Below, piece after piece: positions 5,356 through 46,688 of a stretch of 64,000 bases of DNA. A program made the position numbers and the translations under genes. Each line of letters opens with the position of its first letter. The stretch's first letter is position 1. The notes under the pieces are model-generated. The model made no database searches and was not told where the DNA came from. It was given only the letters and a program-made list of their open reading frames with translations. The DNA comes from a virus: positions 86,678 to 150,677 of IMG/VR virus record IMGVR_UViG_3300036715_002570. The stretch is one strand, 5' to 3'.

Positions 5356-5496
5356 TCATGAACTCGCTGTTCTACACTGTCTGGCTCGGCGTTCAGGTAA
5401 TCCATCCAGACACCCATGTGGCTAATTGCAAAGCTCCGCGGTAAGACGTATGAGTGGTGGGGCGGCGTACAGTAAGACGCAAACTTACTAGTAAAC

Positions 5497-7201: not shown

Positions 7202-7528
7202 TCGATACAACCGTCACCGTGTCGGGGATGGGTGGGTGCATCCAGAATGAGATTTTCTTGATCTCTGGTGCACCCCGCGCAGCGGGGGTTCATTGTCAAG
7301 GTGGATGACTCATACTCCCCCACAGAGAAGTACGACGACCCCCTCAACACTCCAACAGGTTCGCCAGCATTGTCAGAAATTCAATGCTGGCATACTATCC
7401 CCTAACAGACCGCAAGCACGAACCAAATACTGTACGTATTATTGCTCGCCATATTCCCCGGGGGCGGTTAAACACAACATTGAAAGTGAATGCCATAAAT
7501 ACAGCACCTGCCCCATAGGAGCGTATGT

Positions 7529-9351: not shown

Positions 9352-10317
9352 TTGGCTAAGAAACAAGCACCGTATTTCACACTGGCTCCTACACAAAAAC
9401 CGAAAGTTGAGCCACCACCTGCCCAACTCCAGCTGTTCAGCAAGATGCACTTTGCGGCAATCGATCCGAAGATCGAACAGCTCGCTGATGAAGTCGCCCC
9501 GCGACTGAACAGAACAACGTCGATGACGTATTACGCAGTGCTCCATCCGGAGACTGTGTTTGAGCGGCTCGACGACATCCAGCCCGACACTGCTCAATAC
9601 GAAAAGTGGTCGTTGTGTGGCGTTACTGCTCAAGTAACCCCGAAGCGGATCCGCTCGTTCAGGGGCAACCTGAAATGTGTCTGCTGCGGCCGTGAAGGTA
9701 ATATGTTCCTTGTCGAGCGCCACAAAAACGACATAGGAGGATGCCAGTATCTGAACCTGTATCATGCGAGCCAATCTGGGCTCGCTCTGATGACGGTTGA
9801 TCACATCCTGCCCGATAGTCTTGGTGGCAAGTACAGTCAAGACAACTTCCAGACGATGTGCCGCAGCTGCAACAGCGCCAAGGGCAACCTGATGTCGATC
9901 CCTGAGATTGAGAAGGTTCGCGCAAACATCGCTTTGTACGCAAAATCCTGGGTCGTACATGAATTCCTTGACCTGCTGTTGAGCTTGCAGCTGCATATCA
10001 ATAAGGCAGAGGAAAACACGAAGGAACAGTCAGACTTGCGCAAAATCTTCGATCAGTACCGCCGCCGCATTAAGTACAACACCAAGCCGGGTGCTGCTAA
10101 CGCCGCTGTGCTCGAATTGCGTCAAGCTATCGACCGCCACTTCAGCCCGCGGCCCGTGATCGCCGCCCATGTCGTGAAGCCGCATTCGTGGCTTCACGAG
10201 ATTAAGTTGGCGTATCGTCGCTGGCGCAAGCAATCCAAGAAACTGGTTGCACAGTCGATTCGCCGGATGGGCGTATCACTAGTAAACATGTCGAACGCAA
10301 TGCTGTCGGATAAGTAA
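9352..10317 (+). CDS. HNH endonuclease-domain protein
   Basis: CVCCG...TVDHILPDSLGG....NFQTMCRSCNSAKG; GAGGAGG RBS before TTG. Confidence 0.8.
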   Translation: MAKKQAPYFTLAPTQKPKVEPPPAQLQLFSKMHFAAIDPKIEQLADEVAPRLNRTTSMTYYAVLHPETVFERLDDIQPDTAQYEKWSLCGVTAQVTPKRIRSFRGNLKCVCCGREGNMFLVERHKNDIGGCQYLNLYHASQSGLALMTVDHILPDSLGGKYSQDNFQTMCRSCNSAKGNLMSIPEIEKVRANIALYAKSWVVHEFLDLLLSLQLHINKAEENTKEQSDLRKIFDQYRRRIKYNTKPGAANAAVLELRQAIDRHFSPRPVIAAHVVKPHSWLHEIKLAYRRWRKQSKKLVAQSIRRMGVSLVNMSNAMLSDK

Positions 10318-33254: not shown

Positions 33255-33312
33255 CTTGTTGAACTTGGTCGGAAGGTGTTGTATCATCTTCCCACCGCAA
33301 CCAAGGACCAGT

Positions 33313-33570
33313 ATGCTGCCGATTCCGCGAATCCAAGCGATGATCACAATCGTTGAGACGAACCAGATCATGAAGGTGGTGTTCACCAACGTGGGCAACA
33401 TGATGGACGAGCTGCTGATTGCGATCGAGCTCGCATCGATCGCTCTCGGACGCTGGATCGACCCGACCCCGTTCAATGTGCTGCGTGGTGAAGACATCTT
33501 CATCTGGTTCCTGTACGAGGGCACCAACGAGAAGTACATGACGGTCCTGGGGCATAAGCTCAGCGACTGA
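33313..33570 (+). CDS. hypothetical protein
   Basis: hairpin promoter + AAGGA. Confidence 0.7.
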   Translation: MLPIPRIQAMITIVETNQIMKVVFTNVGNMMDELLIAIELASIALGRWIDPTPFNVLRGEDIFIWFLYEGTNEKYMTVLGHKLSD

Positions 33571-33638
33571 CTAGTTGACCCCAACAGGAGATCGTGGTAT
33601 GATCTCCTCTCCACAACCACTCCCCAAGGAGGAGCACC

Positions 33639-34208
33639 ATGAAGTACACTATCCAGATCGGCGACACCCGCCTGGTCCAAGACGACAACGGCGACGTGTT
33701 TGAGTTCACCGCGACGCGCCAACTGTCGAGGGAAGAAGCCCAGGCGAAGATCGCCGAACGCGAGCAGGAGTTCCGTGACGAGATCGCTAGCCTGCTCAGC
33801 GGGCTCAGCGAGGTCGGCGGGCAGAGCATGGTTGTGCTCGACACTGCTGCATCCGCCATGGACGGCAGCAACGGCCACCCGCAATGCGCTGTCTGCGGCA
33901 CACACCACGAGGGCGCTTTCGCCAGCCTGGACGCCGAGATCGTCACAACGTACCCGGTGACCGAGAGCGTCTGGTTCAACTACCCGAACACCGACGCGCT
34001 TGAGGACGACGTCACGCCGAAGCTGTACTTGACGGAGCGCACCACCGGCCGCGCGATCATCGAAGAAGAGCCTGAGCTGCTGGACTGCTCCGCTGAGCAC
34101 GAGCACGGCGCGCTGATCCGCAAGTTTGTGTTCGAGGACGCCACGCCGGCTGAGAAGCCGGTGATGACGATCACGATCCAACCGGTGCCGTACCCGACCG
34201 TCCACTGA
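33639..34208 (+). CDS. acidic hypothetical protein with CxxC
   Basis: hairpin promoter + GGAGG. Confidence 0.75.
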   Translation: MKYTIQIGDTRLVQDDNGDVFEFTATRQLSREEAQAKIAEREQEFRDEIASLLSGLSEVGGQSMVVLDTAASAMDGSNGHPQCAVCGTHHEGAFASLDAEIVTTYPVTESVWFNYPNTDALEDDVTPKLYLTERTTGRAIIEEEPELLDCSAEHEHGALIRKFVFEDATPAEKPVMTITIQPVPYPTVH

Positions 34209-34221
34209 CCACCGTCTCCTC

Positions 34222-34267
34222 GTTCAGAAGGGCTCTGCTAGCAACGGTAGGGCCCTTCCGCTTTTTG
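34222..34267 (+). terminator. intrinsic terminator
   Basis: gaagggctctgc...gtagggcccttc + T-run. Confidence 0.7.
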
Positions 34268-34366
34268 GTCACGAACGGGTAGTTTCACCCTGTTGATCAT
34301 TACCCTCGACGGTATTAGGATAGACCCTGTCGATTGATCAACAACGTCACCTACAGGAGATCAGAC

Positions 34367-34504
34367 GTGAACAAGTCGCACCGTGCCAAGCATGCCCCGC
34401 AGCGCAAGAACGACGGCGGTGATTCGCGGATGAACCGCCTGGCGAAGGCGGCCCGCAAGGGAACGCTGGCCCGCGTCCGTGAGCGCGAGGCGCAGGAGGG
34501 CTGA
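34367..34504 (+). CDS. 45-aa basic protein, not in ORF track
   Basis: promoter, AGGAG, GTG; MNKSHRAKHAPQRK. Confidence 0.65.
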   Translation: MNKSHRAKHAPQRKNDGGDSRMNRLAKAARKGTLARVREREAQEG

Positions 34505-34778
34505 TCACGTCACCCTGTTGATCCTAGCTCGCAATTGGGTTAGGATCAACTCAACACCTGGAGATCTGAATGGGATTACCGCTATAGGGCTTTGATGTGA
34601 CATGCGCCCGCCCCGAAGTCACCCTCGGCTAGAGTTATCTGTGCTGCGGCAGCGCTCAGCAAGTGTGCTGAGACCGCCCGCGATCAGAGAATACGCATGT
34701 TAGAGGATTCCGGCGCCGGCCCGGGCCGGCGCCCCCAGCGCATTCATATCAACAATCCCACCTGGAGGATCCCAGAGC

Positions 34779-34970
34779 ATGAGCAAGAACAGCAAGAACG
34801 CCAAGCGCCACATCACTGAGAAGCAGGCGTCGACCCAGCGCCTCGCTGGCAACAAGGGCCCGTCGAAGACGGCGCCAAAGCACGGCAAGAAGAACGCGTG
34901 GTGGCAGAAGTACCTGTCGTACGCCAGCTACATCAAGGGCGGCAAGAAGGCGGCCAATCAAGACCAGTAG
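34779..34970 (+). CDS. 63-aa Lys-rich protein
   Basis: GGAGG RBS. Confidence 0.7.
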   Translation: MSKNSKNAKRHITEKQASTQRLAGNKGPSKTAPKHGKKNAWWQKYLSYASYIKGGKKAANQDQ

Positions 34971-35059
34971 GCCGCCGCGGCTGAAGCACGAAAAGGACCC
35001 ATGTGGTTCTTTCGTTGTTTTTGGGGTACAATTGTTACATCTTTCAACGAGGAGCAACC

Positions 35060-35410
35060 ATGCCCACGAACAAGCTGTTTACGAACATTGACCGGAAGGT
35101 GTCCCGCGGCCGCCAGGACGTGACGCTGTTGCAGTTCGCAACGGTCGGTGCCCACAAGGTCAGAATCGAGGTCAAGTCGGACTCTTACAAATTCCAATGC
35201 TATGCCCACTTATCGGTTCTCGATAAGGAAAAGATGGCATGGAACCCCGTGGTGCATATCCCCCATGGTCAGATGCACACCCCTGAGGGCGTGTGCTATC
35301 AACCGGATGCCCGTGAGGTCACTGCCCACAATCAATCTACGCTTGCAGCCAAGTATTTTGGCGCCGACGTCAACGAGCTGATCCGTATCTATAAAGCGTT
35401 GATCGACTGA
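35060..35410 (+). CDS. hypothetical protein
   Basis: GAGGAG RBS. Confidence 0.7.
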   Translation: MPTNKLFTNIDRKVSRGRQDVTLLQFATVGAHKVRIEVKSDSYKFQCYAHLSVLDKEKMAWNPVVHIPHGQMHTPEGVCYQPDAREVTAHNQSTLAAKYFGADVNELIRIYKALID

Positions 35411-35557
35411 GTGGGTGTTTTCACCTCGTGGTGAAAAAAGCATCATCGCCCAGTTGATTCGACCTGCGGTTTCCCTTATAGTTACTTCACTGGATCGAAC
35501 AACGCAAGCAAGCGACTACGACCAGCCCTCATCCACCCTCTCCACAGGAGCTGCACC

Positions 35558-36193
35558 ATGTCCAAGAACCTCGCCCCCGCGCAACACGCCGTCGCCCTCG
35601 CCATCCTCGCCGCCGTCGGCCGCGAAGTCCTCGCCACCGAGGAAGGCAACACCCACACGCTCAAGATCACCGGCATCTCGCCCGACCAAGTCGGCTCGAT
35701 GAAGGACAAGAGCAAGGCTCCGTACGCCGTGCTGACCCGCGACGGCGAGGACGGCGGCGAGGCGATCGTCGTCGCCCTGCACCCGAAGAACGCCTCGGCC
35801 CTGCTCGAGAAGGGCGAGGACGGTATCTACAAGCTGGTCGCCGCTGAGGGCACGACCGAGGCCGTCTCGACCTCGGCCGCCGCCGAGCCGACGACCACGG
35901 AAGCGTCCGCCGAAGGCACGGCCGAGGGCAACGCCGAAGCGACCGTCGAGGCCAAGGACAACGTGCCGACCAAGAAGGAAATGGCGATCGACGCCTACAT
36001 CACGTTGGCCAACGACGGCAAGACCCGCGCCGAGATCATCAAGCACTTCGTTGACGTGATCGGCCTGTCCAAGGCGGGCGCCGCCACGTACTACCAGAAC
36101 TGCCACTCGAACAAGGCGGGCTGGACCGAAGCGCTCGAGACCTCCAGCGACGCCGCGGGCACTGAGAACGATGCCGAAGCGGACGCGTCCTGA
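35558..36193 (+). CDS. acidic protein with shared helical domain
   Basis: TKKEMAIDAY..TRAEIIKHF...GLSKAGAATYYQ. Confidence 0.85.
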   Translation: MSKNLAPAQHAVALAILAAVGREVLATEEGNTHTLKITGISPDQVGSMKDKSKAPYAVLTRDGEDGGEAIVVALHPKNASALLEKGEDGIYKLVAAEGTTEAVSTSAAAEPTTTEASAEGTAEGNAEATVEAKDNVPTKKEMAIDAYITLANDGKTRAEIIKHFVDVIGLSKAGAATYYQNCHSNKAGWTEALETSSDAAGTENDAEADAS

Positions 36194-36233
36194 TCGGGCA
36201 ATGGGGAGCTACGAGCTCCCCCACTCCACCCAG

Positions 36234-36273
36234 AGGGTGGGTAGTCGTGAGGCTACCCACCCTTTCTCCTTTT
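36234..36273 (+). terminator. intrinsic terminator
   Basis: gggtgggtagtc-gtga-ggctacccaccc + T-rich tail. Confidence 0.8.
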
Positions 36274-36580
36274 CATGTGGGCAGATGGCGGAAAGAGCTT
36301 ATCTGCAACGACGTTATTACTGAGGATTTCCCATGGACGACCCAGCTGGTCAATGTCTCCTAGACCTCTAGCAGATAAGCGACCATTGAATCAGGAGACT
36401 ATCGACAGATTACCCTACTGTATAGTCCGTTGACATTAGCTGCTTATTCTGGTTGACCGGTTGATCTCAACCCAGTTTACCCTGATAGTAGACCCCAATG
36501 CGAACGGAATTCCAGCCGGCGCAGAAACTTCAACCACAGGGCAGTTTCGCCCAGCTTTCCTTTTACAGGAGCCTTTCATC

Positions 36581-37036
36581 ATGTCGACCACCCAAGCCGT
36601 CAACCTGTCCCCCAACGCGATCAAGATCCTCGGCTACGTCAGCAAGGGCCTGAACACCCGCGAAGCGATCGCCAAGCGCATGAAGACCAGCGTGCCCGTC
36701 GTCAACGGCAGCCTGACCGTCCTGAAGCGCCAGGAGATGGTCACCGTCGACGAAGAAGGCGTGATCACCGCCGTCGAGGGCGCCGCCGTCGTCGCCGAGT
36801 CCGCCCACACGCCGCGCTCGCAGAGCAAGATGGCGCAGGCCCGCAAGCTGTACGCGAAGTACCAGCACAAGGGCCGTCAGGTCGTGCTCGACAAGCTGAT
36901 CGGCATCGGCCTGACCCCGAAGGGCGCGTCGACGTACTACCAGACGCTGAAGACGCGCGCCGACGCCGAGGCTGCCGCGCCCGCCGCTCCGGTCGCCCGC
37001 AGCCGCAAGTCGCAGGCCGCTGCCACCCACGCCTGA
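36581..37036 (+). CDS. winged-HTH protein with shared helical domain
   Basis: N-terminal TREAIAKRMKTSVPVVNGSLTVL; C-terminal SKMAQARKLY..GLTPKGASTYYQ. Confidence 0.8.
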   Translation: MSTTQAVNLSPNAIKILGYVSKGLNTREAIAKRMKTSVPVVNGSLTVLKRQEMVTVDEEGVITAVEGAAVVAESAHTPRSQSKMAQARKLYAKYQHKGRQVVLDKLIGIGLTPKGASTYYQTLKTRADAEAAAPAAPVARSRKSQAAATHA

Positions 37037-37075
37037 TCGGGGCGATCTGGGTGCCGCTCTGAGGGCGGCCTCCAC

Positions 37076-37091
37076 TGTTCACTAGTAAACA
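37076..37091. promoter_or_regulatory. near-palindromic operator-like site TGTTCACTAGTAAACA
   Basis: core ACTAGTAAACA also at 5487, 10278, 27551 (rev), 27828, 41053, 41087. Confidence 0.6.
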
Positions 37092-37186
37092 TCTGGTGTA
37101 ATAGTGGTGGCCGCCCTCTCCGTTTGCACTGTTGACTAATTAGGGTGAAGGCAGTATCCTGCATCACCACTTCGAGGAGTCAACTG

Positions 37187-37504
37187 ATGCCCAAGAAATT
37201 GACCGATGCGGACCGCGTCCGTGCTGCGATGAAGGCGGCGGGGTTCAAGACGAAAACCCGCGTCGGCGACGTTGCTCTGAAGCGCAACGTCAATGTGTCC
37301 GACCGCTCGTGCAACCCGTACATCCAGCTGACGCTGCCGCTCGCCGCCGACATCAACAAGGCGCCGCTGGAGCAGCAACATAAGCTCCATGACGAGCTGG
37401 TCAAGCAGTTCGGTGATCGGTACGCGTTCGGGATGTTCCGCCGTCCGCACCCGCGTCTGTCGACGTACCTGCAGTTCTACGTCACGCGGGAGAAGAAGCA
37501 ATGA
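37187..37504 (+). CDS. basic hypothetical protein
   Basis: hairpin promoter + GAGGAG. Confidence 0.7.
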   Translation: MPKKLTDADRVRAAMKAAGFKTKTRVGDVALKRNVNVSDRSCNPYIQLTLPLAADINKAPLEQQHKLHDELVKQFGDRYAFGMFRRPHPRLSTYLQFYVTREKKQ

Positions 37505-37867
37505 TGTACCAGCACCTGCCCGAGCGTGTGACGGAGACGGTTCAGCGCCACCCGCAACGTCCGCAGACTCCGACGCAATGGCCTCTCGGCCTGCCCGTCT
37601 CTCCTCCTTCGAACAGCAAGGACAAGCCTCGTTGGTGAGCGCGCTGCCCACTTGAGGTACGAAGGCTGGTGTGCAAATGTCACCCAGCCTTCTTAAAAAA
37701 GTCAACGGCGAAAAACAAACAGGCGCTCTCGCCGTCCACCCACAGGATGCCTGTTCGACCGCATACCCATTATCACCGCACACTAGAGAAAAGGCAAGCC
37801 CCTCCTTAACGGTTGCCAAGTTACCCGTGCGGAAGGATACTAAGGCATCGCAATTGAGGAGCCCGCA

Positions 37868-38389
37868 ATGGCCCGCACGCCCAAGCCGCAACCGCTCGTG
37901 ACCAAGGAAACGCTGCAGCAGATGATCCAGCTTGCAGCCAACCGCGCCGAGCAGAAGAAGATCGTTGGCCGCGCGCTCGTCGCGCTGTACCAACGTCAGA
38001 CGCCGTCGGAACAGTCGTCTGAAACGACGAAGGACAGCAACTCGATCGGGTTCTCCAGTGCCGATGCCGACGTCGGCTCCCGCTGCGCGAAGTACTTCCT
38101 GCAGCACCAGACGCTGCTCGACTGGATGTACGGCGTCTGGATGCAAGCCGGTAAGGGCGGCTATCCGCGTATCTGCCGGTACAGCCGCCAGCTGAACGAG
38201 ATCGCTGAAGAGAAGGCGGCTCGCAAGCGTACGCTGATGCAGCGCCGCCTGGAGGAGCTGAAGGTGACCTATGGTGAGTGCGTCGACAGCGACGATCCGT
38301 CGATCCTCCAGCCGATCGTTGACGAAATGCGCTCGCTCGAAGATCGACTGGGTGTTTCGCCCTACATCATCATTGGTGCTGTTGTCTAA
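37868..38389 (+). CDS. conserved phage protein (RAL.ALY.RQT..EQ...GF...DA type)
   Basis: motif recognition, promoter + RBS. Confidence 0.75.
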   Translation: MARTPKPQPLVTKETLQQMIQLAANRAEQKKIVGRALVALYQRQTPSEQSSETTKDSNSIGFSSADADVGSRCAKYFLQHQTLLDWMYGVWMQAGKGGYPRICRYSRQLNEIAEEKAARKRTLMQRRLEELKVTYGECVDSDDPSILQPIVDEMRSLEDRLGVSPYIIIGAVV

Positions 38390-38532
38390 ACTGAATAGGT
38401 CAGATACGCTCAATCCGTCAACTGAAAAATTCGCTCAATAAGAGTGGATCTGCTAAGCAGGGCACCCAGCCAGTAAGAGGAGGGTTGGGGCGGATCGGAA
38501 GGTTGGCGTATTCCAACCAACCAGGAGCGAGA

Positions 38533-38709
38533 ATGACCTGTGAAGCAGTCGAAGACACCGTCACCCCGACCGAGAACCTGAAGTCGCCCGTGTTCGCGGC
38601 GCTGATGGCCCAGATCATGATGCCGCAGCAATACGACACGATCATGCAACACGCGCTGGTGTCCGTCAACGCGAAGTGCCCCAGCCGCACTGTGACCATC
38701 GACAAGTGA
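38533..38709 (+). CDS. hypothetical protein
   Basis: AGGAG RBS. Confidence 0.6.
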   Translation: MTCEAVEDTVTPTENLKSPVFAALMAQIMMPQQYDTIMQHALVSVNAKCPSRTVTIDK

Positions 38710-38716
38710 GGAGATC

Positions 38717-38911
38717 ATGAGCACCAACTTCGACAACATCGTCCTGATGGGCCAGATCCAACGGATCGCGGAGGCCCACGGTGTCCAAGCAGCCGCTCAT
38801 GTCGCCGACGACGCTGGCGTCCCGTTCAAGCAGGCGCACGCGATCCTGCTGCCGTACTGCGCCCGTGGGCGCACGTCGGTCCCGGCCGTTAAGGTGCAGC
38901 TGCTGCACTAG
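38717..38911 (+). CDS. hypothetical protein
   Basis: GAGGAG RBS. Confidence 0.6.
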   Translation: MSTNFDNIVLMGQIQRIAEAHGVQAAAHVADDAGVPFKQAHAILLPYCARGRTSVPAVKVQLLH

Positions 38912-39005
38912 GCAGTTGCCAAGCCAGCAGCCTTTGTGGGATAGTTCCTACATCGGCTGCTGATTGAAGCGCAGCCGAGATGTTCTTCAATCAGCGGGAG
39001 CTTGC

Positions 39006-39236
39006 ATGGCAATCATCAAGGAAGACACTCCGACCACGCTCGGCGTTCAGTTCGTCGTCGAGCTGCAGGTGGCGAACCACATCGACGGCAACTACCTCGA
39101 CCACGAGATGATGGCCTCTGCGATCCACGGTGCGATCCGGTGGATGCTGGATCGCCGTGGATACGCCGGCTGCAAGACGACGGTCGACTCAGTGCAGTAC
39201 GAAACCGATTACCCAATTGACAAGGCGGCGGAATGA
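39006..39236 (+). CDS. hypothetical protein
   Basis: GGAG RBS. Confidence 0.65.
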   Translation: MAIIKEDTPTTLGVQFVVELQVANHIDGNYLDHEMMASAIHGAIRWMLDRRGYAGCKTTVDSVQYETDYPIDKAAE

Positions 39237-39673
39237 TGAGAGAATTCTTCTACCGCACCGACTGGATCGGTGTTGCGATCGCGTTCGTGATCCTGTCCCT
39301 CTTCTTCACCACCGGAGCTGCTCAATGAAGATCAAGAAAGCCCTCACCCCCTTTGCATACGCCGTCCTGTTCGCGCTTGCGCTCGACGGGTTGATCGTGT
39401 GGGCGATCATCGAGGGCTGGGTCACCTACACGCAGGCTCACCCGTGAAGGGTTGGCTGGTTGAGCGCCCTGCTCCCAGCCGTTTTTATAACGATGCTCAA
39501 GGAGAGCTGAATGAAATGGTTCCTGCGTCTGTGGTTGATCTGGGCGTGCTTGTGTCTGGTCGGCAGCGGTCTGTGCGTCTACGCGGTGGTGCATTTCATC
39601 CAGAAGTTCTGGTGATCCGTTGACCCTCACCAGGAGTTAGGGTACACTACGTCCATCGTAGTGAGGAATCAAC

Positions 39674-40513
39674 ATGCACCTGACCGCTGAACTGAAGGCT
39701 CGTGTCACCGCGAAGATCAAGGACGGCATCGCTCGCGCTGAGAAGCGCTACGGCCGCACGTTTCCGATGCCGACGATCGGGTACGACCTGACCGGCCGCG
39801 TCGCTGGATACGCGAACTACATCAAGTGGCACATCCAGCTGAATGCTGACCTGCTGGTTCGCAACGTCGATGATTTCATCGCCCGCACTGTCCCGCATGA
39901 GCTTGCGCACTTGATCACCGACCGGGTGTATCCGGAGAACCACCGGAACAAGGGGATCACGATCACCCGCACCGGCCGCGTCAAGCGTGAGAAGCGAGAC
40001 ATCCACGGGACTGACTGGCAGAGCGTCTGCCTGGTGCTCGGGATGACCGATGTCACCCGCTGCCACAGCTACGACACGACTGAGACCAAGCGCGTTACGT
40101 CGCGTAGCCGGACGGTCGAATGGCAATGCCCGTGCGGTGCCAAGCTGATGCTGTCGCCGAAGATATCGGCAGAACTTGCAATCAACCCAGACTCGCGCTG
40201 GCACAAGTCGTGCCGGTGCCGTCGCCTGTTCCGTGCAGGTACCCAGCCCGCACCGACCTCGAACACGACGGTGCATGTTCGCCCGCAGCCGGCTCCGATT
40301 CTCCTGCCGAAGCCGACCCCGACGCCTGTGCTGTGCACCGCTGCAGCGGTGCAACAGGGCGCCAGCAAGATCGATGTCTGCTCTGCGCTGTACAAGGCTG
40401 CGCCTGTGGGTACGTCGCGCACCGCGATGATCGCACTGTTCGTCGCCAATGCGAACTGCACCCCCACGGGCGCGGCGACGTACTACCAGACGCTGAAGAA
40501 GAAGTTCAGTTGA
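39674..40513 (+). CDS. SprT-like zinc metalloprotease with C-terminal shared helical domain
   Basis: GRVAG.A, PHELAH, HG.DWQ, CHSY; SKIDVCSALY..CTPTGAATYYQTLKK. Confidence 0.85.
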   Translation: MHLTAELKARVTAKIKDGIARAEKRYGRTFPMPTIGYDLTGRVAGYANYIKWHIQLNADLLVRNVDDFIARTVPHELAHLITDRVYPENHRNKGITITRTGRVKREKRDIHGTDWQSVCLVLGMTDVTRCHSYDTTETKRVTSRSRTVEWQCPCGAKLMLSPKISAELAINPDSRWHKSCRCRRLFRAGTQPAPTSNTTVHVRPQPAPILLPKPTPTPVLCTAAAVQQGASKIDVCSALYKAAPVGTSRTAMIALFVANANCTPTGAATYYQTLKKKFS

Positions 40514-40627
40514 TCCAGAGAGCGGTTGCTCTTTGCACCGTTCTCTGCTGCTGTGAGCACCTGTAAGTTCGCCTCACAGTGCAGCCCGCACACCAGTGGA
40601 TGGTTGAGTGGGATGGTGTGATCAACT
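40508..40627 (+). ncRNA. candidate four-way-junction RNA element
   Basis: closing stem agttgatc/gatcaact enclosing three hairpins. Confidence 0.45.
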
Positions 40628-40658
40628 ACAATACAAATATTGAGGATGTGAGGCAACG

Positions 40659-40907
40659 ATGTCTGGATACGCTGGGGTTGATGATGATGCCCTACACGCG
40701 TTGATTCTCGCTGAAAACGGAATCAACGCGGCCAAATCAATGGTCGACGGACCTTCCCTGTCTGAATGTTTGGACTGTGGAGAATCGATCACTCCGAAAC
40801 GGATCCAAGCACTTGCAACGATCGGGATGCGGTGCATGTATTGCATTGACTGTCAACCGAAACACGACAAGCCGGGCGGCATCAAGATGCTCGATCGGAT
40901 CCTGTGA
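40659..40907 (+). CDS. DksA/TraR C4 zinc-finger protein
   Basis: CLDCGESI...R......CIDCQ. Confidence 0.85.
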   Translation: MSGYAGVDDDALHALILAENGINAAKSMVDGPSLSECLDCGESITPKRIQALATIGMRCMYCIDCQPKHDKPGGIKMLDRIL

Positions 40908-41144
40908 GGCGCTTGCCTTCCGGGGTGCTCTGGTTGCGGATCAACAGGTGGATCGCGCTTCCCTGGAAGACGACACAGACGCCGACGGCTGCGCTGAAGT
41001 TCAAGCCCGGATTGCCGCTCGTGACCGTGTGCTGTCCAAGTTGGTGAGATCCACTAGTAAACACCCACCCTCGATTACTCCATACCACTAGTAAACATTG
41101 GTGGTCTGGGTATCATACCGTCTTCACAACGCAAGGAGAGTGGG

Positions 41145-41363
41145 ATGAGCAACGTCGAGCTGGAGAACGTCTGATCGTCGACGTTCGCATCCCATGAGAC
41201 CGCATGCTTCCAGGCATCCGTTTACATCGACAACGCCGGGCATGGCGGTCCGAACCGTTACACACCGTGGGAGATCGAGAAGACGCTGACGGCGATCGCG
41301 AAGGCGACGATGCCGGTGCGGAAGTTCTCCGGGTTCGAGCTGGAGCCGAGTGCTGATCGGTGA
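41145..41363 (+). pseudogene. gene with in-frame TGA at codon 10
   Basis: MSNVELENV*SSTFASHETACFQASVYID...GHGG; good RBS. Confidence 0.6.
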
Positions 41364-41482
41364 CCTGTTCGATCGCATGTGGTTATTGTCTTCGCTTTTG
41401 GGTGAAAGGACAACGGCGTTGCCTCGTTGTCGGACAGCAGTGATTGGGGGTAGGATTCGTGCATCCGACCAAGGAGCCAGCC

Positions 41483-41779
41483 GTGAGCAAGATCAACTTG
41501 ATGTCGCCAGCCACCCTCGAGGCCGTCACTCACCTGGCGCGTTACGCTGACCAACTGATCAACGGCCCACAGCCGCTCGAGACACTGAAGGCGACGCTTG
41601 CGCAATGCAGGTTTACCAGCACGAAAAAGTTGGTTGGCATCGAAGGTGTTGACCTGATTAGTGGCGCTGCCCAGCTGCGGATCGAGTATACCTATCGCAG
41701 TATGGAAGACGGCTGCGAGAGGCGGGCGGTATTCTGGCTGAGCTACGAGTCGGGCAATTATGCCGGCTACGCGGCCTAA
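41483..41779 (+). CDS. hypothetical protein
   Basis: promoter + AAGGAG, GTG start. Confidence 0.65.
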   Translation: MSKINLMSPATLEAVTHLARYADQLINGPQPLETLKATLAQCRFTSTKKLVGIEGVDLISGAAQLRIEYTYRSMEDGCERRAVFWLSYESGNYAGYAA

Positions 41780-41851
41780 GGTCAACCGTTGTCTGAAGAG
41801 GTGGTCTAGGAGATACTGGACCACATCAGCAACCAACAGGAGCAAACTGCG

Positions 41852-42157
41852 ATGAGCACTCCCGATACCGTCAGCCAGATCACCCACACCGACGGCGGCA
41901 CGACGATCGTCGGTCCGGATGCGATGCTGTTCTACAAGGCCGCGCAACTGAAGGGCTTCATCGGCCTGTACATCAAGTGCGGCATGATCCCGACTCGCGG
42001 CGTGACGATCAGCAAGATGCTGAAGATGGCGACCGAGATCACCAAGAAGCCGTACAAGAACACCGACGACGGCCGCAGGCAGGCGGAAGCTGACCTGCAA
42101 ACGTGGGTCAACACGATGAAGGCCGCCCTGCCGATCGAGGACAAGCGGACGAAGTGA
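41852..42157 (+). CDS. hypothetical protein
   Basis: hairpin promoter + AGGAG. Confidence 0.75.
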   Translation: MSTPDTVSQITHTDGGTTIVGPDAMLFYKAAQLKGFIGLYIKCGMIPTRGVTISKMLKMATEITKKPYKNTDDGRRQAEADLQTWVNTMKAALPIEDKRTK

Positions 42158-42160
42158 CCC

Positions 42161-42202
42161 GTTGATGTGGCTGCTAGTTGGATGTATAGTAGCCACATCA
42201 AC
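42161..42202 (+). promoter_or_regulatory. hairpin promoter (type example)
   Basis: gttgatgtggctgcta / tagtagccacatcaac; TTGATG-N17-TATAGT. Confidence 0.8.
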
Positions 42203-42220
42203 AACTGAAGGAGCTCTGCA

Positions 42221-42583
42221 ATGAACGCCCAACAACTGCTGCTCGACGCCGCGAAGGACCTCGACAACGGCGCGGCCGTCCGCTCGTACTCGGGGCGCGG
42301 GATGTTCGGACGCAACTGCGTCGGGATCACCGGCACGCTGTCGGACTGCCAAGCGGTGGTCGCTGGCGCCCTGACTGCCGCGATGGAAGACCTGTTCACG
42401 TCGTCGATCGATACCGACGACAGCGACCGTGAAGCGTACAACAAGCGCGATCAAGTGGCAACGCTGATCGACCAGCTGACCAAGTTCTCGTGGGACAACA
42501 TGGGTTACGACGTCGTGCTGTACTTCCCGAACCTCAAGTGGGAAGAGGTTGAAGAGGAAGAGATCGACGACGTCGACGGCTGA
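42221..42583 (+). CDS. conserved phage protein (RSYSGRGM.G..C.GI type)
   Basis: motif + DNMG...VLYFP. Confidence 0.8.
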   Translation: MNAQQLLLDAAKDLDNGAAVRSYSGRGMFGRNCVGITGTLSDCQAVVAGALTAAMEDLFTSSIDTDDSDREAYNKRDQVATLIDQLTKFSWDNMGYDVVLYFPNLKWEEVEEEEIDDVDG

Positions 42584-42642
42584 CCAGTTGATCTGTGGTG
42601 CGTTTGGCTGTACGCTAGGCGCACCACAACTTGGAGTCTACT

Positions 42643-42936
42643 ATGCCGCACCGTGAATTGCTAACCCGAATGGCTGAACTGTCCGACGAGTCGTTGTACG
42701 AGCTGTTCGAGGGTGCTGCAGCAGAACTGGTGATCCGTAGCAACGCTGAAAACTTCGTTGACACGCACCTGGCTGTCGACGAGCCTGGCGACTTCTCGAC
42801 GTACGGTACCACGGAAGAAACCGTTCGAGCGGTGTTGGTGGACGGCATCGTGGAACTCGTTGCCAGCCGGCAGAAGACGATGGATCATGCAGCAATCATG
42901 AAGCGTTACGAGGAGCGCAACAAGAATGGCAACTAG
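42643..42936 (+). CDS. hypothetical protein
   Basis: hairpin promoter + GGAG. Confidence 0.7.
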   Translation: MPHRELLTRMAELSDESLYELFEGAAAELVIRSNAENFVDTHLAVDEPGDFSTYGTTEETVRAVLVDGIVELVASRQKTMDHAAIMKRYEERNKNGN

Positions 42937-43171
42937 CGTCAAGAACCCGATGCACCGCGTCGGGCAACCGTGGTTCAAGCGTTGCACACACTGCAACGAG
43001 CTGTTCACGTCGTTGGGGTTGTCGCGGCACTGGGACCACTGCAAGAGCCGCCCGGTCAATATGACGGTGCCACAGCAGCGTGAGCAGGAACGGCGCCGCC
43101 GCGAGATCCTGAAGTCGATGGCGGAGCTGGTGAAGATGCTGCCTTCGCGTGCGAAGGGGCGCCGCGTATGA
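42926..43171 (+). CDS. small zinc-finger-like protein
   Basis: CTHC...LSRHWDHC. Confidence 0.65.
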   Translation: MATSVKNPMHRVGQPWFKRCTHCNELFTSLGLSRHWDHCKSRPVNMTVPQQREQERRRREILKSMAELVKMLPSRAKGRRV

Positions 43172-43413
43172 CGTACGAGCTGCCGAACAACGAGGGGCGG
43201 CGGTATGAGAACACGAGTCGTGAGGACATGGCGCGCTACCTCGAGATCATGCGACAGTGCGCCCGGTATCGTCACTCGTCTCCGTCTGCAAGTCAACGGG
43301 CGAGACACTTCTACCACGAGCACACGTTCCGCCGTGCGTTCGTCACCAGCATCATCGAGTTGAGGCATCGTCTCCGCGGCAAGGTGGCCCTGTTGTCCAA
43401 CAGCGTGGTCTGA
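43168..43413 (+). CDS. hypothetical protein
   Basis: ATGA overlap. Confidence 0.6.
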   Translation: MTYELPNNEGRRYENTSREDMARYLEIMRQCARYRHSSPSASQRARHFYHEHTFRRAFVTSIIELRHRLRGKVALLSNSVV

Positions 43414-43457
43414 GGGATACTGGCTTCACTGATTCAACAACGCACGGAGAGATTCAA

Positions 43458-43979
43458 ATGCATGTCGACTTCGCAAACGAAGTGATCGCTGAACTGCTGC
43501 AAGACGTCAAGGGCACCAAGCTCCTGTCGATCGACATCAGCACCGAACCGACGCTGCTCGGCGGCAAGAAGAACCCGATGAAGGGCCACGTTCGCAAGAT
43601 CCAAGTGGGCGCGAACGTGATGGTTGCGGGCATGAAGAAGGGCAGCGTGTACGACAACATGGTGCGCCGCCGCCTTGCCGCTGAAGGCAAGGATCCGGAC
43701 GCGTTCGAACTGCAGGAGCGCAAGTGGGGCAAGCGCGTTGATGGCACGCCGTTCATCGAGAACAAGGGTGAGCTGTACCTCGAAGTGTTCTACGTCAAGC
43801 CTGGCAAGGTGCATTACGAGCACAACGGCAAGCAGATCGATCCTGCGTTCATCGAGGGCCTTCCGCCTGCCCGCGAAGAAGCCGAACAAGGTGGCCTCGA
43901 AGACAAGGTGATCATCCGCACGGTCAAGCTGGAAAACATCCTGGCGATGAACGTCAACGGCGGCCGCCACGAATTCTGA
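43458..43979 (+). CDS. conserved phage hypothetical protein
   Basis: KNP.KG, YDNMV.RRL..EGK, RKWG, G.LYL; terminator-like hairpin 43988-44010. Confidence 0.8.
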   Translation: MHVDFANEVIAELLQDVKGTKLLSIDISTEPTLLGGKKNPMKGHVRKIQVGANVMVAGMKKGSVYDNMVRRRLAAEGKDPDAFELQERKWGKRVDGTPFIENKGELYLEVFYVKPGKVHYEHNGKQIDPAFIEGLPPAREEAEQGGLEDKVIIRTVKLENILAMNVNGGRHEF

Positions 43980-44079
43980 AGTCAACAGGGAGGCCGAAAG
44001 GCCTTCCCTTCCGTATGGGCACTGTTGTGGTTATACGGAAGGGGCTGGATACTACGTCTACCGCATCAGAAAGCCAAGC

Positions 44080-44436
44080 GTGAAACCGACGAGCCTTTCC
44101 CCCAACGTCGACACGGACGCATGGACCAGCGAACAATGGGATGCAAGCATTGACGAGGGTGGTGACTTCACGATCGACGGCACGTGCTGGTCGGTGACGG
44201 GGATCGGCACGAAGGACGCTGACACGATCGCTCACCGTGGTACGGGTCTGAGGCTGTCGTACACGCTTCAATGGGGCAAACACCAGCTGATCGACCTGCC
44301 CGACAATCCGACGTGGATGGATCTCAACAAAGCGGCCGCTCAAGCAATCAAGCAAAGCGGCGACCGCCACCACATCTTTATCGAAGACTTCAGGCTCGTC
44401 AACGAGCACATGATCGACCTGATCACCGGCAGCTGA
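44080..44436 (+). CDS. hypothetical protein
   Basis: TW.DL..AA..AI.QSGD.HHIFIE. Confidence 0.7.
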   Translation: MKPTSLSPNVDTDAWTSEQWDASIDEGGDFTIDGTCWSVTGIGTKDADTIAHRGTGLRLSYTLQWGKHQLIDLPDNPTWMDLNKAAAQAIKQSGDRHHIFIEDFRLVNEHMIDLITGS

Positions 44437-44439
44437 CCT

Positions 44440-44481
44440 GTTGATGTGGCTACTGATTGGTAGTACAGTAGCCACATCAAC
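44440..44481 (+). promoter_or_regulatory. hairpin promoter with perfect 16-bp stem
   Basis: gttgatgtggctactg / cagtagccacatcaac; TTGATG-N17-TACAGT. Confidence 0.8.
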
Positions 44482-44496
44482 TACTGAGGAGTCCAC

Positions 44497-44736
44497 ATGC
44501 ACACCGATCTGCTGAGCCGCTTTCCGAAGGTCGAGGCGCTGATCACCGACATCCAGGCGGCGAACGTCGGCCAGACGACCGACTCGGTGATCAGCGACAT
44601 CCGTGAGGTGTTCGATCGTGAGGGGCCGTACCAGTACGCCAAGCGATTCGGCCTGCTGGTCAACAACAGCGGCGAAGAGTTCGCGGTCCAGTGGATGAGC
44701 TTCTACAACGAGTATTCCGGCTCGCTGACGTACTGA
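44497..44736 (+). CDS. hypothetical protein
   Basis: GAGGAG RBS. Confidence 0.7.
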   Translation: MHTDLLSRFPKVEALITDIQAANVGQTTDSVISDIREVFDREGPYQYAKRFGLLVNNSGEEFAVQWMSFYNEYSGSLTY

Positions 44737-44793
44737 CCCGTTGATCGTTGGTGCGTTTGGTCTGATACTAGACGCACCAACTGGAGACCAAGC

Positions 44794-45021
44794 ATGAACC
44801 AGACCAGCATCCACTATCGCACCGACCAGCCTCGGCTTAGCGTCTCCTCTCCCGTCAACGCTGAAGGGGACAGCCGTGAGATGGAGATCGGCCAAGCGGA
44901 GTCCGCGAGCGAGGCGGCGTTCTGGCACAGCATCGGCTATGCGGTCCACGTCGCACAGTGGAACGGCCGGTACTTCGCCGATCGCCAGACGATCTTCCCT
45001 GACCAACCGCTGGAGGGCTGA
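44794..45021 (+). CDS. hypothetical protein
   Basis: hairpin promoter + GGAG. Confidence 0.7.
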   Translation: MNQTSIHYRTDQPRLSVSSPVNAEGDSREMEIGQAESASEAAFWHSIGYAVHVAQWNGRYFADRQTIFPDQPLEG

Positions 45022-45181
45022 GGTGGCCTCGACTGCGCAATACACCTGCGGCCGGTGTGGTGGGCTGTTCACCGCTCGGACCGCGGGCGTCGTCAGCTGG
45101 ATCACCTGGCGCAGGATCCCGTGATGTGACCACTCTTCGTGATCTGTACCGACGGGGACGGCCGCTCGCGATCGCCAAGTG

Positions 45182-45286
45182 GCTGAGCCGAGCCGAGCTG
45201 CGCTGAGCCGAGCCGAGCTGCGCTGAGCTGATCTGCCATGAGCTGAGCTGAGCTGAGCTGAGCTGAGCTGAGCTGATCTGCCATGA
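45182..45286. repeat. pentanucleotide microsatellite (GAGCT/GAGCC)n
   Basis: (gagct)7 at 45240-45274 plus degenerate units. Confidence 0.95.
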
Positions 45287-45422
45287 TCGGACTGGATCGC
45301 CAATTTGGCTGGCCGGTCGAGCTTGGCAGGGACGGCCGCCCAGCTGTACATGATCTGCAGCCGGATCCTGTTGCCCTCAGCGTGAGGCTGTGCTATAGTA
45401 ACCACATCAACTGGAGACCTCA

Positions 45423-45905
45423 ATGACGCGACCGAACTTCTGGACTGGTGCCCACCCGTTGACAACGACGCAGCGCGAGCTGTTCGACAAGCTGGTGCCG
45501 GTGAACGGGGCAGCGGAGACGCTGCAAGGTGAGCTGCTGCACGCCGCGAACAAGATCAGCTACGACTGGTACAACAACGGCTGGGGCTGCAACAACTGGT
45601 CCGGCGCCGTTGTGTTCCTCCGCGACAGCATCAACCTGCTGCCGAACAGGATCTCTGTTGGAGAGTTGATCCGCTTGAACGGGGCACTGCGGTTTGCTAA
45701 CAACTACTCACATGGCGAGCAGACGTTCGGCCTGGCTGACCGGGAAGCGGCCAACACCGTGACCGACATCATGGAGATCGTCGTCCAAGCGATCATCAAC
45801 AATCCGGAGCCGATCGTCAACATCGATGACATGTACAACCACTCGGAGCCGGACTACCAAGGGCATGATGATGAGGACTACGACGAGGACTACGACGAGG
45901 ACTGA
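45423..45905 (+). CDS. conserved phage protein (LVP..G.A.T.QGELL...I.YD.YNNG type)
   Basis: motif, promoter + GGAG. Confidence 0.75.
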   Translation: MTRPNFWTGAHPLTTTQRELFDKLVPVNGAAETLQGELLHAANKISYDWYNNGWGCNNWSGAVVFLRDSINLLPNRISVGELIRLNGALRFANNYSHGEQTFGLADREAANTVTDIMEIVVQAIINNPEPIVNIDDMYNHSEPDYQGHDDEDYDEDYDED

Positions 45906-45961
45906 CCCGTTGATCCGATGTGGATGCTGATGTATAGTAGCCACATCAACTGGAGACCAAC

Positions 45962-46276
45962 ATGCAACTGCGACTGACCCCGTTCTCGTCCAAGCTGTTC
46001 TCGTGCAACCGAAAGCGCGGCCTGTTGGTTGCTGAGCTGAGCGACCTTGGGGTCCGCCCCGGCAACTCGCCGCTCAGCCAGCTGTACGACGACGCTGCTG
46101 ATGTCGGCCTGGCGATCCGCAGCGACGAGACTGGTGTCACGACCGTGTGGCACTGGTCGCACGACGTGATCAACGCGGACGATGAGGTTGAGGTGATGAT
46201 CTTCCGCCCGACTCACGAGACGGTGCGGAGCAACCCGCAGCTGGATGGTTACGAGCTGCACCTGATCAACGACTGA
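45962..46276 (+). CDS. hypothetical protein
   Basis: hairpin promoter + GGAG. Confidence 0.75.
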   Translation: MQLRLTPFSSKLFSCNRKRGLLVAELSDLGVRPGNSPLSQLYDDAADVGLAIRSDETGVTTVWHWSHDVINADDEVEVMIFRPTHETVRSNPQLDGYELHLIND

Positions 46277-46396
46277 GGTGATGATGACTACATACCAACG
46301 AACCAATTTCGGCAACCGGATCCGTCCGATCGTGCGGCGTGTCCGTGAGCTGCTGCTCGACGTCGTGATCTTTGTCGCCGGCCACTGAACACAATT

Positions 46397-46630
46397 ATGG
46401 ACCACGACGACTTCCTCAAGCACACGTTCTCGTGGGTCCTCAGCAAGTGCGTCGAGTTGAACTAGCAAGCCAAGCAGTTCTCCGAGTTCGTCAACCGGAC
46501 GCACACCGTTGTGTATTGGTACCTGCAGGGCCAGCAGACGCTCAACGGCTCGTGCTCCGACATGGTGTGGCACGTTTGCGATCGAGGCGAAGCACGTGTT
46601 CAGCTCCCACCTGCCAGCGCGCTAAAGTAA
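46397..46630 (+). pseudogene. ORF with in-frame TAG at 46463
   Basis: MDHDDFLKH...VELN*QAKQFSEF. Confidence 0.45.
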
Positions 46631-46688
46631 ACGGTTGACCCTAACCCGGAGTGCTGGGATAGTACTCCCATCGCAACCGGAGACCAAC

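Follow-up and report, generated by a model that had tools for sequence, protein, structure and literature searches.

Here we report that small early genes in a 64,000-nucleotide (nt) stretch of phage DNA are preceded by predicted sigma70-type promoters that overlap an inverted repeat able to fold into a hairpin in sense-strand RNA. The stretch analyzed (hereafter the window, to which all coordinates refer unless a relative is named) is the final 64 kb of IMG/VR record IMGVR_UViG_3300036715_002570, which has 150,677 bp. At least 13 such promoters were counted between 33.2 and 46.7 kb, with more elsewhere in the genome, and the hairpins are real, statistically solid and clade-wide: their arms pair, they exceed chance expectation, they keep their position relative to the promoter, they covary, their wobble pairs are biased to the sense strand, the design is conserved in relatives, and homology between copies is confined to the module. 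As judged from their layout, the elements are composites of the promoter-early stem-loop (PeSL) type, a kind already described, here in a distant T4-type lineage of high G+C content (GC). We consider it probable that the hairpin acts on read-through transcripts, as in PeSLs, and makes each gene an insulated and exchangeable cassette.

The original prediction, made from the window sequence alone, listed ten arm pairs around such promoters. In a script check all ten pair as written, and seven of their eight non-Watson-Crick positions are top-strand G:T pairs, with one true mismatch, as had been claimed. When the strand was folded against 200 shuffles, the hairpins at these sites proved stronger than their shuffled controls, with z-scores of -1.7 to -6.6, and at eight of the ten at most 1 of 200 shuffles folded equally well. 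A consensus scan recovered 24 sigma70-type sites between 31 and 49 kb, nearly all on the plus strand, against 4.5+-2.3 in shuffled sequence, and between 30 and 50 kb there are 25-28 promoter sites with a Shine-Dalgarno sequence (SD) and an ATG downstream. The predicted boxes follow a clear sigma70 consensus with a -35/-10 spacing of about 17 nt, repeated many times.

For an evaluation independent of the hairpins themselves, 25 elements were picked by promoter score, SD and ATG, blind to pairing. Their mean minimum free energy (MFE) was -16.4 kcal/mol, compared with -11.2 kcal/mol when only the spacer and the downstream flank were shuffled; none of 100 shuffled sets reached the observed mean. 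An uninterrupted helix of at least 8 bp was present in 11 of the 25 elements, whereas random 55-mers drawn from this region had one in 19% of cases (p=0.003); a helix of at least 12 bp was present in 4 of 25 versus 1.6%. Enrichment is also seen among the 36 promoter-like elements of the rest of the genome (14/36, p=0.005), so the feature is not limited to the 33.2-46.7 kb region. One measure, the number of pairs enclosing the -10 box in the MFE structure, did not separate the elements from their shuffles and was dropped. The four strongest stems form two paralogous pairs (42161/44440 and 42594/44747), and the number of independent events is therefore below ten.

The position of the hairpins was determined by searching 90 nt on either side of 76 promoter elements pooled from the window and its relatives. 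The helix center falls within -6 to +5 nt of the first -10 base in 19 of 44 helices of at least 9 bp, where 3.5 were expected (p=3e-10); as a result of this clustering the -10 box is divided, the loop holding its first half and the 3' arm its second, in agreement with the predicted location of the box at the loop or the loop/stem edge. Every repeat occupies the space that separates a gene's stop codon from the GGAG ribosome site of the gene downstream, the stem starting a median of 8.5 nt past the stop codon and ending a median of 7 nt ahead of the SD, which bears out the claim that it stops just short of that site. The whole interval from stop codon to ATG has a median of only 59 nt, and in the commonest layout (20 of 68 elements) a TGA stop is followed by four bases and the -35 box. 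Because the space between stop codon and SD is so short, a hairpin centered near -12 is expected from geometry alone, and the placement of the -10 box in the loop need not reflect a role in promoter recognition. Within this frame the stems range from 8 to 20 bp, with 15 of 76 reaching at least 12 bp and about half having merely 8-10 bp; arm sequence, length and register all vary, and loop sizes run from 3 to 35 nt across sites.

The wobble pairs indicate the strand on which the structure is selected. With stems redefined such that G:T and A:C were penalized equally, the transition-type mispairs in 41 stems were 25 G:T versus 5 A:C, against a background of 56% G:T (p=0.0014); in the window alone the counts were 9 and 1. 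Correspondingly, the more stable RNA hairpin was on the sense strand in 32 cases versus 5 (Wilcoxon p=1e-5). These data support selection of the structure on the sense strand, as RNA or top-strand single-stranded DNA (ssDNA), as the original prediction had proposed. A duplex operator is unlikely because the wobbles are strand-asymmetric.

Stem sequences differ between sites and stay paired, again as predicted. Between the paralogous modules B and B' (42594-42628 and 44747-44781) three pairs are changed on both sides and one G:U has become A-U, and between A and A' (42161-42202 and 44440-44481) one pair is changed on both sides. Covariation across related phages was assessed in an ungapped alignment of eleven same-register modules from the window and three relatives, in which 86% of cells are paired and both partners have changed in 10 of 16 pairs. 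In 500 shuffles none reached the covariation score or the paired share and one had at least as many doubly changed pairs; when the register is slid, the alignment collapses in every case. Since its members were chosen for having a stem, this alignment illustrates covariation and does not prove it; the proof of a selected structure is the enrichment over random sites.

Relatives of the phage were found only through a large protein index, with the protein encoded at 43458-43979 as the marker; a search of IMG/VR with the module pattern and two protein-seeded IMG/VR scans found no relative, and blastn against a phage collection gave no DNA match to the window. Identical copies of the marker lie on contigs L006-L010, which represent the same phage as the window (99.8-100% identity), and homologues on other contigs are 73%, 64%, 56%, 53% and 46% identical; L012 and L013 belong to the same phage as L011, and L016 to that of L015. 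The promoter-in-hairpin design recurs in the relatives L011, L014, L015, L018 and L019 with stem sequences that differ greatly; some of these stems are perfect over 15-20 bp and reach from the -35 box to just ahead of the SD. Among the pooled 76 elements, 54%, 26% and 20% have helices of at least 8, 10 and 12 bp, compared with 19%, 4% and 1.5% of random sites. In L018, a more distant relative of 50% GC, the -35 box is paired with a different and longer downstream box with a consensus of about TAGGGGACAAT, which replaces the plain -10.

Gene content is mosaic with respect to these relatives, a homologous scaffold being broken by unrelated genes, with two homologues in a different order. Within the window, the homology between modules A and A' (42155-42208 versus 44434-44487, 85% identity) ends at the stop codon on one side and at the SD on the other, and the genes that they flank are unrelated. 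Table 1 lists the promoter hairpins with the features that accompany them.

Table 1. Promoter hairpins and associated features in the window; z is the folding score against shuffled sequence.
Feature	Coordinates	Strand	Details
Promoter with 8-bp stem	33259-33292	+	-35 33259-64, -10 33282-87, stem 33271-78/33285-92; z -3.5; not in the original prediction
Promoter with stem	33575-33608	+	-35 33575-80, -10 33598-603, stem 33586-95/33599-608; z -2.5
Promoter whose -35 pairs with 34335-43 (9 bp, 35-nt loop), plus inner stem	34291-34343	+	-35 34293-98, -10 34316-21; z -3.2
Promoter within 10-14 bp hairpin; a non-coding leader separates it from the next gene	34517-34550	+	-35 34518-23, -10 34541-46; z -5.6
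Promoter with stem enclosing the -10	38916-38962	+	-35 38916-21, -10 38940-45, stem 38925-32/38955-62; z -5.3; not in the original prediction
Promoter with stem	41789-41824	+	-35 41789-94, -10 41812-17, stem 41801-09/41816-24; z -4.1
Module A, stop codon to SD	42155-42208	+	-35 42162-67, -10 42185-90, 16-bp stem 42161-76/42187-202; z -6.6
Module B	42588-42628	+	-35 42588-93, -10 42611-16, 15-bp stem 42594-608/42614-28 with three G:U pairs; z -5.4
Module A', paralogue of A (85% identical)	44434-44487	+	Perfect 16-bp stem 44440-55/44466-81; z -6.5
Module B', paralogue of B	44741-44781	+	Stem 44747-61/44767-81; three compensatory double changes versus B; z -5.7
Half-module	45371-45419	+	-10, 3' arm and SD (45394-45419) 96% identical to 45933-45958; 5' arm missing
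Promoter with stem	45910-45947	+	-35 45910-15, -10 45933-38, stem 45917-29/45935-47, one mismatch; z -2.7
Promoter with stem, weakest site	46635-46668	+	-35 46635-40, -10 46658-63, stem 46648-55/46661-68; z -1.7
Bulged promoter hairpin	about 35453-35507		Not in the original prediction
Canonical terminator, hairpin with T-tract (context)	34227-34268	+	Others at 34992-35022 and 36232-36275

Two of the tabulated sites have unusual surroundings. Downstream of the promoter hairpin at 34517-34550 come a 5-codon open reading frame and a leader of about 230 nt (34551-34778), which holds a perfect 22-nt G/C palindrome at 34712-34733, before the gene at 34779. The half-module at 45371-45419 sits downstream of a 400-nt non-coding gap with a tandem repeat of about 20 copies of the pentanucleotide GCTGA (45182-45280), at which several contigs end.

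The first elements of this kind, termed PeSLs, came from the T4-type phages RB49 and phi1, with later examples from PST/T4 and nt-1/KVP40; they concentrate before ORFans in hyperplastic regions (Arbiol 2010, PMC2839356; Comeau 2014, PMC4122927). According to these studies, the PeSL stem-loop reduced lacZ reporter expression to the same degree as the rrnB T1 terminator did, the complete module is a very strong promoter, and recombination between PeSLs yields indels and mini-circles; the G-T pairs in the stems were also remarked on by the original authors (PMC2839356, PMC4122927).

By analogy, we propose the following mechanism for the window. Each small early gene is preceded by a compact module made up of a stop codon, a host-type sigma70 promoter, an inverted repeat, GGAG and ATG, in which the 3' arm covers the predicted transcription start and ends a few nt before the GGAG. 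With a start predicted 6-8 nt past the -10 box, all but the last few bases of the 3' arm would be missing from the gene's own transcript. Because the 5' arm lies upstream of that start, the hairpin would form only in RNA reading through from upstream, a point of the original prediction that the promoter geometry supports. In such RNA it could attenuate or terminate read-through, or otherwise end the upstream message, and every ORFan would then be an insulated unit driven by a promoter of its own. Cassettes may be exchanged between phages by recombination at the modules, whose conserved ends would offer short homologies for it. Both functions have experimental support in the PeSLs of RB49/phi1. 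Of the three functions that had been suggested for the hairpins, the insulator or processing signal and the recombination handle match the PeSL literature; the third, a switch at the level of promoter DNA, finds no support, as set out below.

Termination or attenuation by the stem, as in PeSLs, would be the most likely effect, and several observations weigh against it and against the cassette reading as a whole. The termination step is borrowed from a different phage, and none of 38 stems has five or more T in the next 8 nt. The tendency of promoters with a separate upstream hairpin to have weaker internal stems falls short of significance (p=0.07). The AT-rich tract that precedes the -35 box in PeSLs is absent here; directly upstream of the box there is a stop codon and a short C/G-rich linker, with a modal gap of 4 nt between stop codon and -35. 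Finally, the near-identical contigs L006-L010 differ from the window only in the tandem repeat, with no indel at any module; in L006 the sole difference, at 45182-45280, is a 10-nt deletion and a 15-nt insertion. A canonical intrinsic terminator was rejected for the promoter hairpins, since no T-tract follows the stems. No match of the terminator scan coincides with a promoter hairpin: the three canonical terminators of the region lie elsewhere, and none is present between 41 and 47 kb, the stretch with the strongest promoter hairpins.

Because the stems lack a T-tract, a role of the hairpin in RNA cleavage or stabilization is a serious rival, possible although rather unlikely on balance. Under this explanation the hairpin would be an RNase III-type cleavage site, or a protective 3' or 5' stem-loop that sets the half-lives of the neighboring messenger RNAs. 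It accounts for the sense-strand bias, for stems that reach 15-20 bp in some cases, and for a hairpin that sits exactly between stop codon and SD, and the published PeSL reporter assay cannot separate termination from RNA cleavage or decay. Intercistronic hairpins, such as the RNase III sites in T7 early transcripts and stabilizers of the repetitive extragenic palindromic (REP) type, are likewise sense-RNA stem-loops between the cistrons of a read-through RNA; however, they are not superimposed on a promoter, and the T7 sites are longer and contain internal loops. An RNase III processing site spans about two turns of double-stranded RNA, for which the roughly half of the stems that have just 8-10 bp are short, and an Rfam search returned no match, which also counts against this explanation.

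The hairpin might instead gate the promoter at the DNA level, as a cruciform in supercoiled DNA or a fold of ssDNA comparable to the early promoters of phage N4 or to ssDNA promoters, an explanation that we regard as very unlikely. The long, near-perfect arms with an AT-richer -10 box at their center would suit it, and the N4 early promoters resemble the elements described here in having a short hairpin centered about a dozen nt upstream of the start. N4 promoters, however, lack sigma70 boxes and are read by the virion RNA polymerase as a template-strand hairpin, whereas the promoters in the window have a strong sigma70 consensus with 17-nt spacing and wobbles that favor the non-template strand. 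The Frpo-type single-strand promoters of conjugative plasmids also carry the promoter sequence inside a fold-back, but the Frpo fold rebuilds a duplex -35/-10, whereas here the -35 box pairs with the start region and the -10 box is split between loop and stem, leaving no mimic of a duplex promoter. Both N4-like and Frpo-like promoters were rejected on these grounds, and many of the stems are in any case too short to extrude. T7-type RNA polymerase, AsiA and RegB were looked for across the 150 kb of a record that is 64% complete, with control searches that were silent too, and no match was found; the lack of a phage RNA polymerase match therefore weighs at most slightly against the DNA-level switch, and the lack of a RegB match at most slightly against processing.

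A more speculative variant, to which we assign a similarly slight probability, would have the palindrome, from the -35 box to about +6 with the melting-prone -10 box at its center, extrude in supercoiled or transiently single-stranded DNA and work as a supercoil-sensing on/off switch for host sigma70 polymerase, which would make it the equivalent, for a host enzyme, of the hairpin promoter of N4; alternatively, selection could have diversified the stems to stop neighboring cassettes from recombining while keeping the structure.

Least probable of all, in our estimate, the repeats would be operators for a dimeric phage or host regulator, which also overlap promoters, or a non-functional by-product of template-switch mutation or recombination in cramped intergenic DNA, a process by which quasi-palindromes can be perfected; but stem sequence, stem length, loop size and register vary between sites, a duplex site is not expected to show strand-asymmetric wobbles, selection is favored by the enrichment and by a position that stays fixed in five divergent phages, and a duplex operator was rejected for lack of conserved half-sites at a fixed spacing.

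The source record is classed in IMG/VR as linear, with a CheckV completeness estimate of 64%. Its genes for a Gp23-type major capsid protein (PF07068, E=2e-44) and rIIA (E=2e-120) are the basis on which we assign the phage to the large lytic T4-type myoviruses; the closest rIIA matches are merely 25-33% identical, and the lineage is an uncultured one. A helicase, a nicotinamide phosphoribosyltransferase and a tyrosyl-tRNA synthetase are also encoded, and no match to the portal family was found in the record, which is itself only 64% complete. Almost all genes are on the plus strand. The 30-50 kb part of the window, with a GC of about 59% in a genome of 55-60%, is dense with small plus-strand genes, and 7 of 10 tested early proteins are without a Pfam match at E<=0.01, in keeping with an ORFan character.

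Several other motifs were observed in the window and its relatives. The 12-mer CACTAGTAAACA has seven copies in the window versus 0.12 expected, exact at 10277, 37080, 41052 and 41086 and with one mismatch at 5486, 27551 (minus strand) and 27827, and it recurs in intergenic regions of the relatives L011 and L015; the gene at about 41145 has two of the copies ahead of it, and another lies in the loop of a long hairpin at 37050-37120. It may represent a second promoter class or a regulator site. A 19-nt non-coding motif is exactly conserved at 37728-37746 of the window, 5852-5870 of L011 and 1099-1117 of L015, within about 45 nt of similarity. It is located in long intergenic regions after T-rich terminators, in phages whose proteins are merely 56-64% identical, and could correspond to a small RNA or to a site of regulation. 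A C-terminal segment is common to three early proteins that are otherwise unrelated (36922-36953, 40468-40499 and 35996-36097), two copies of this segment being 97% identical in DNA over 32 nt. In L011, what looks like a transfer RNA gene lies between two promoter modules (7430-7510).

The kind of element reported here is itself not new. The present analysis widens the known range of PeSL-type cassettes: to AT-rich T4-like coliphages and vibriophages it adds a distant T4-type clade, uncultured and high in GC, with several of its relatives. The cassettes there take an extreme form with the whole promoter inside the stem, and the result supports the combination of one promoter and one read-through hairpin per ORFan as a general way in which large lytic phages package accessory genes into insulated units that can be exchanged. 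The long and varied stems offer cleaner evidence that a structure is selected, and on the sense strand, than the short G/C stems of the original PeSLs. They also amount to a naturally occurring collection of promoter/insulator parts of very small size, and allow the idea of hairpins that would stop or process transcripts without a U-tract to be put to the test.

In their organization the modules share with PeSLs the order of stop codon, sigma70-like -35 and -10 boxes, SD and ATG, a stem-loop placed between the boxes or overlapping the -10 or the -35, and repetition before ORFans in variable regions of a T4-type genome. In both, homology of module size flanks unrelated genes and degraded half-modules occur. 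The same script, applied to the phi1 variable region, found many modules with a 7-8 bp stem in which the -10 box lies in the loop, in the 3' arm or at the stem edge, and others with the stem in the spacer. The differences lie in the stems and the genomic background: the stems described here, which reach 16 bp in the window and 20 bp in relatives, exceed those of PeSLs in length and are far more varied, they do not have the GGGG/CCCC signature of PeSLs, they often take in the -35 box itself and the start site, and they belong to an uncultured lineage with a genome of 55-60% GC.

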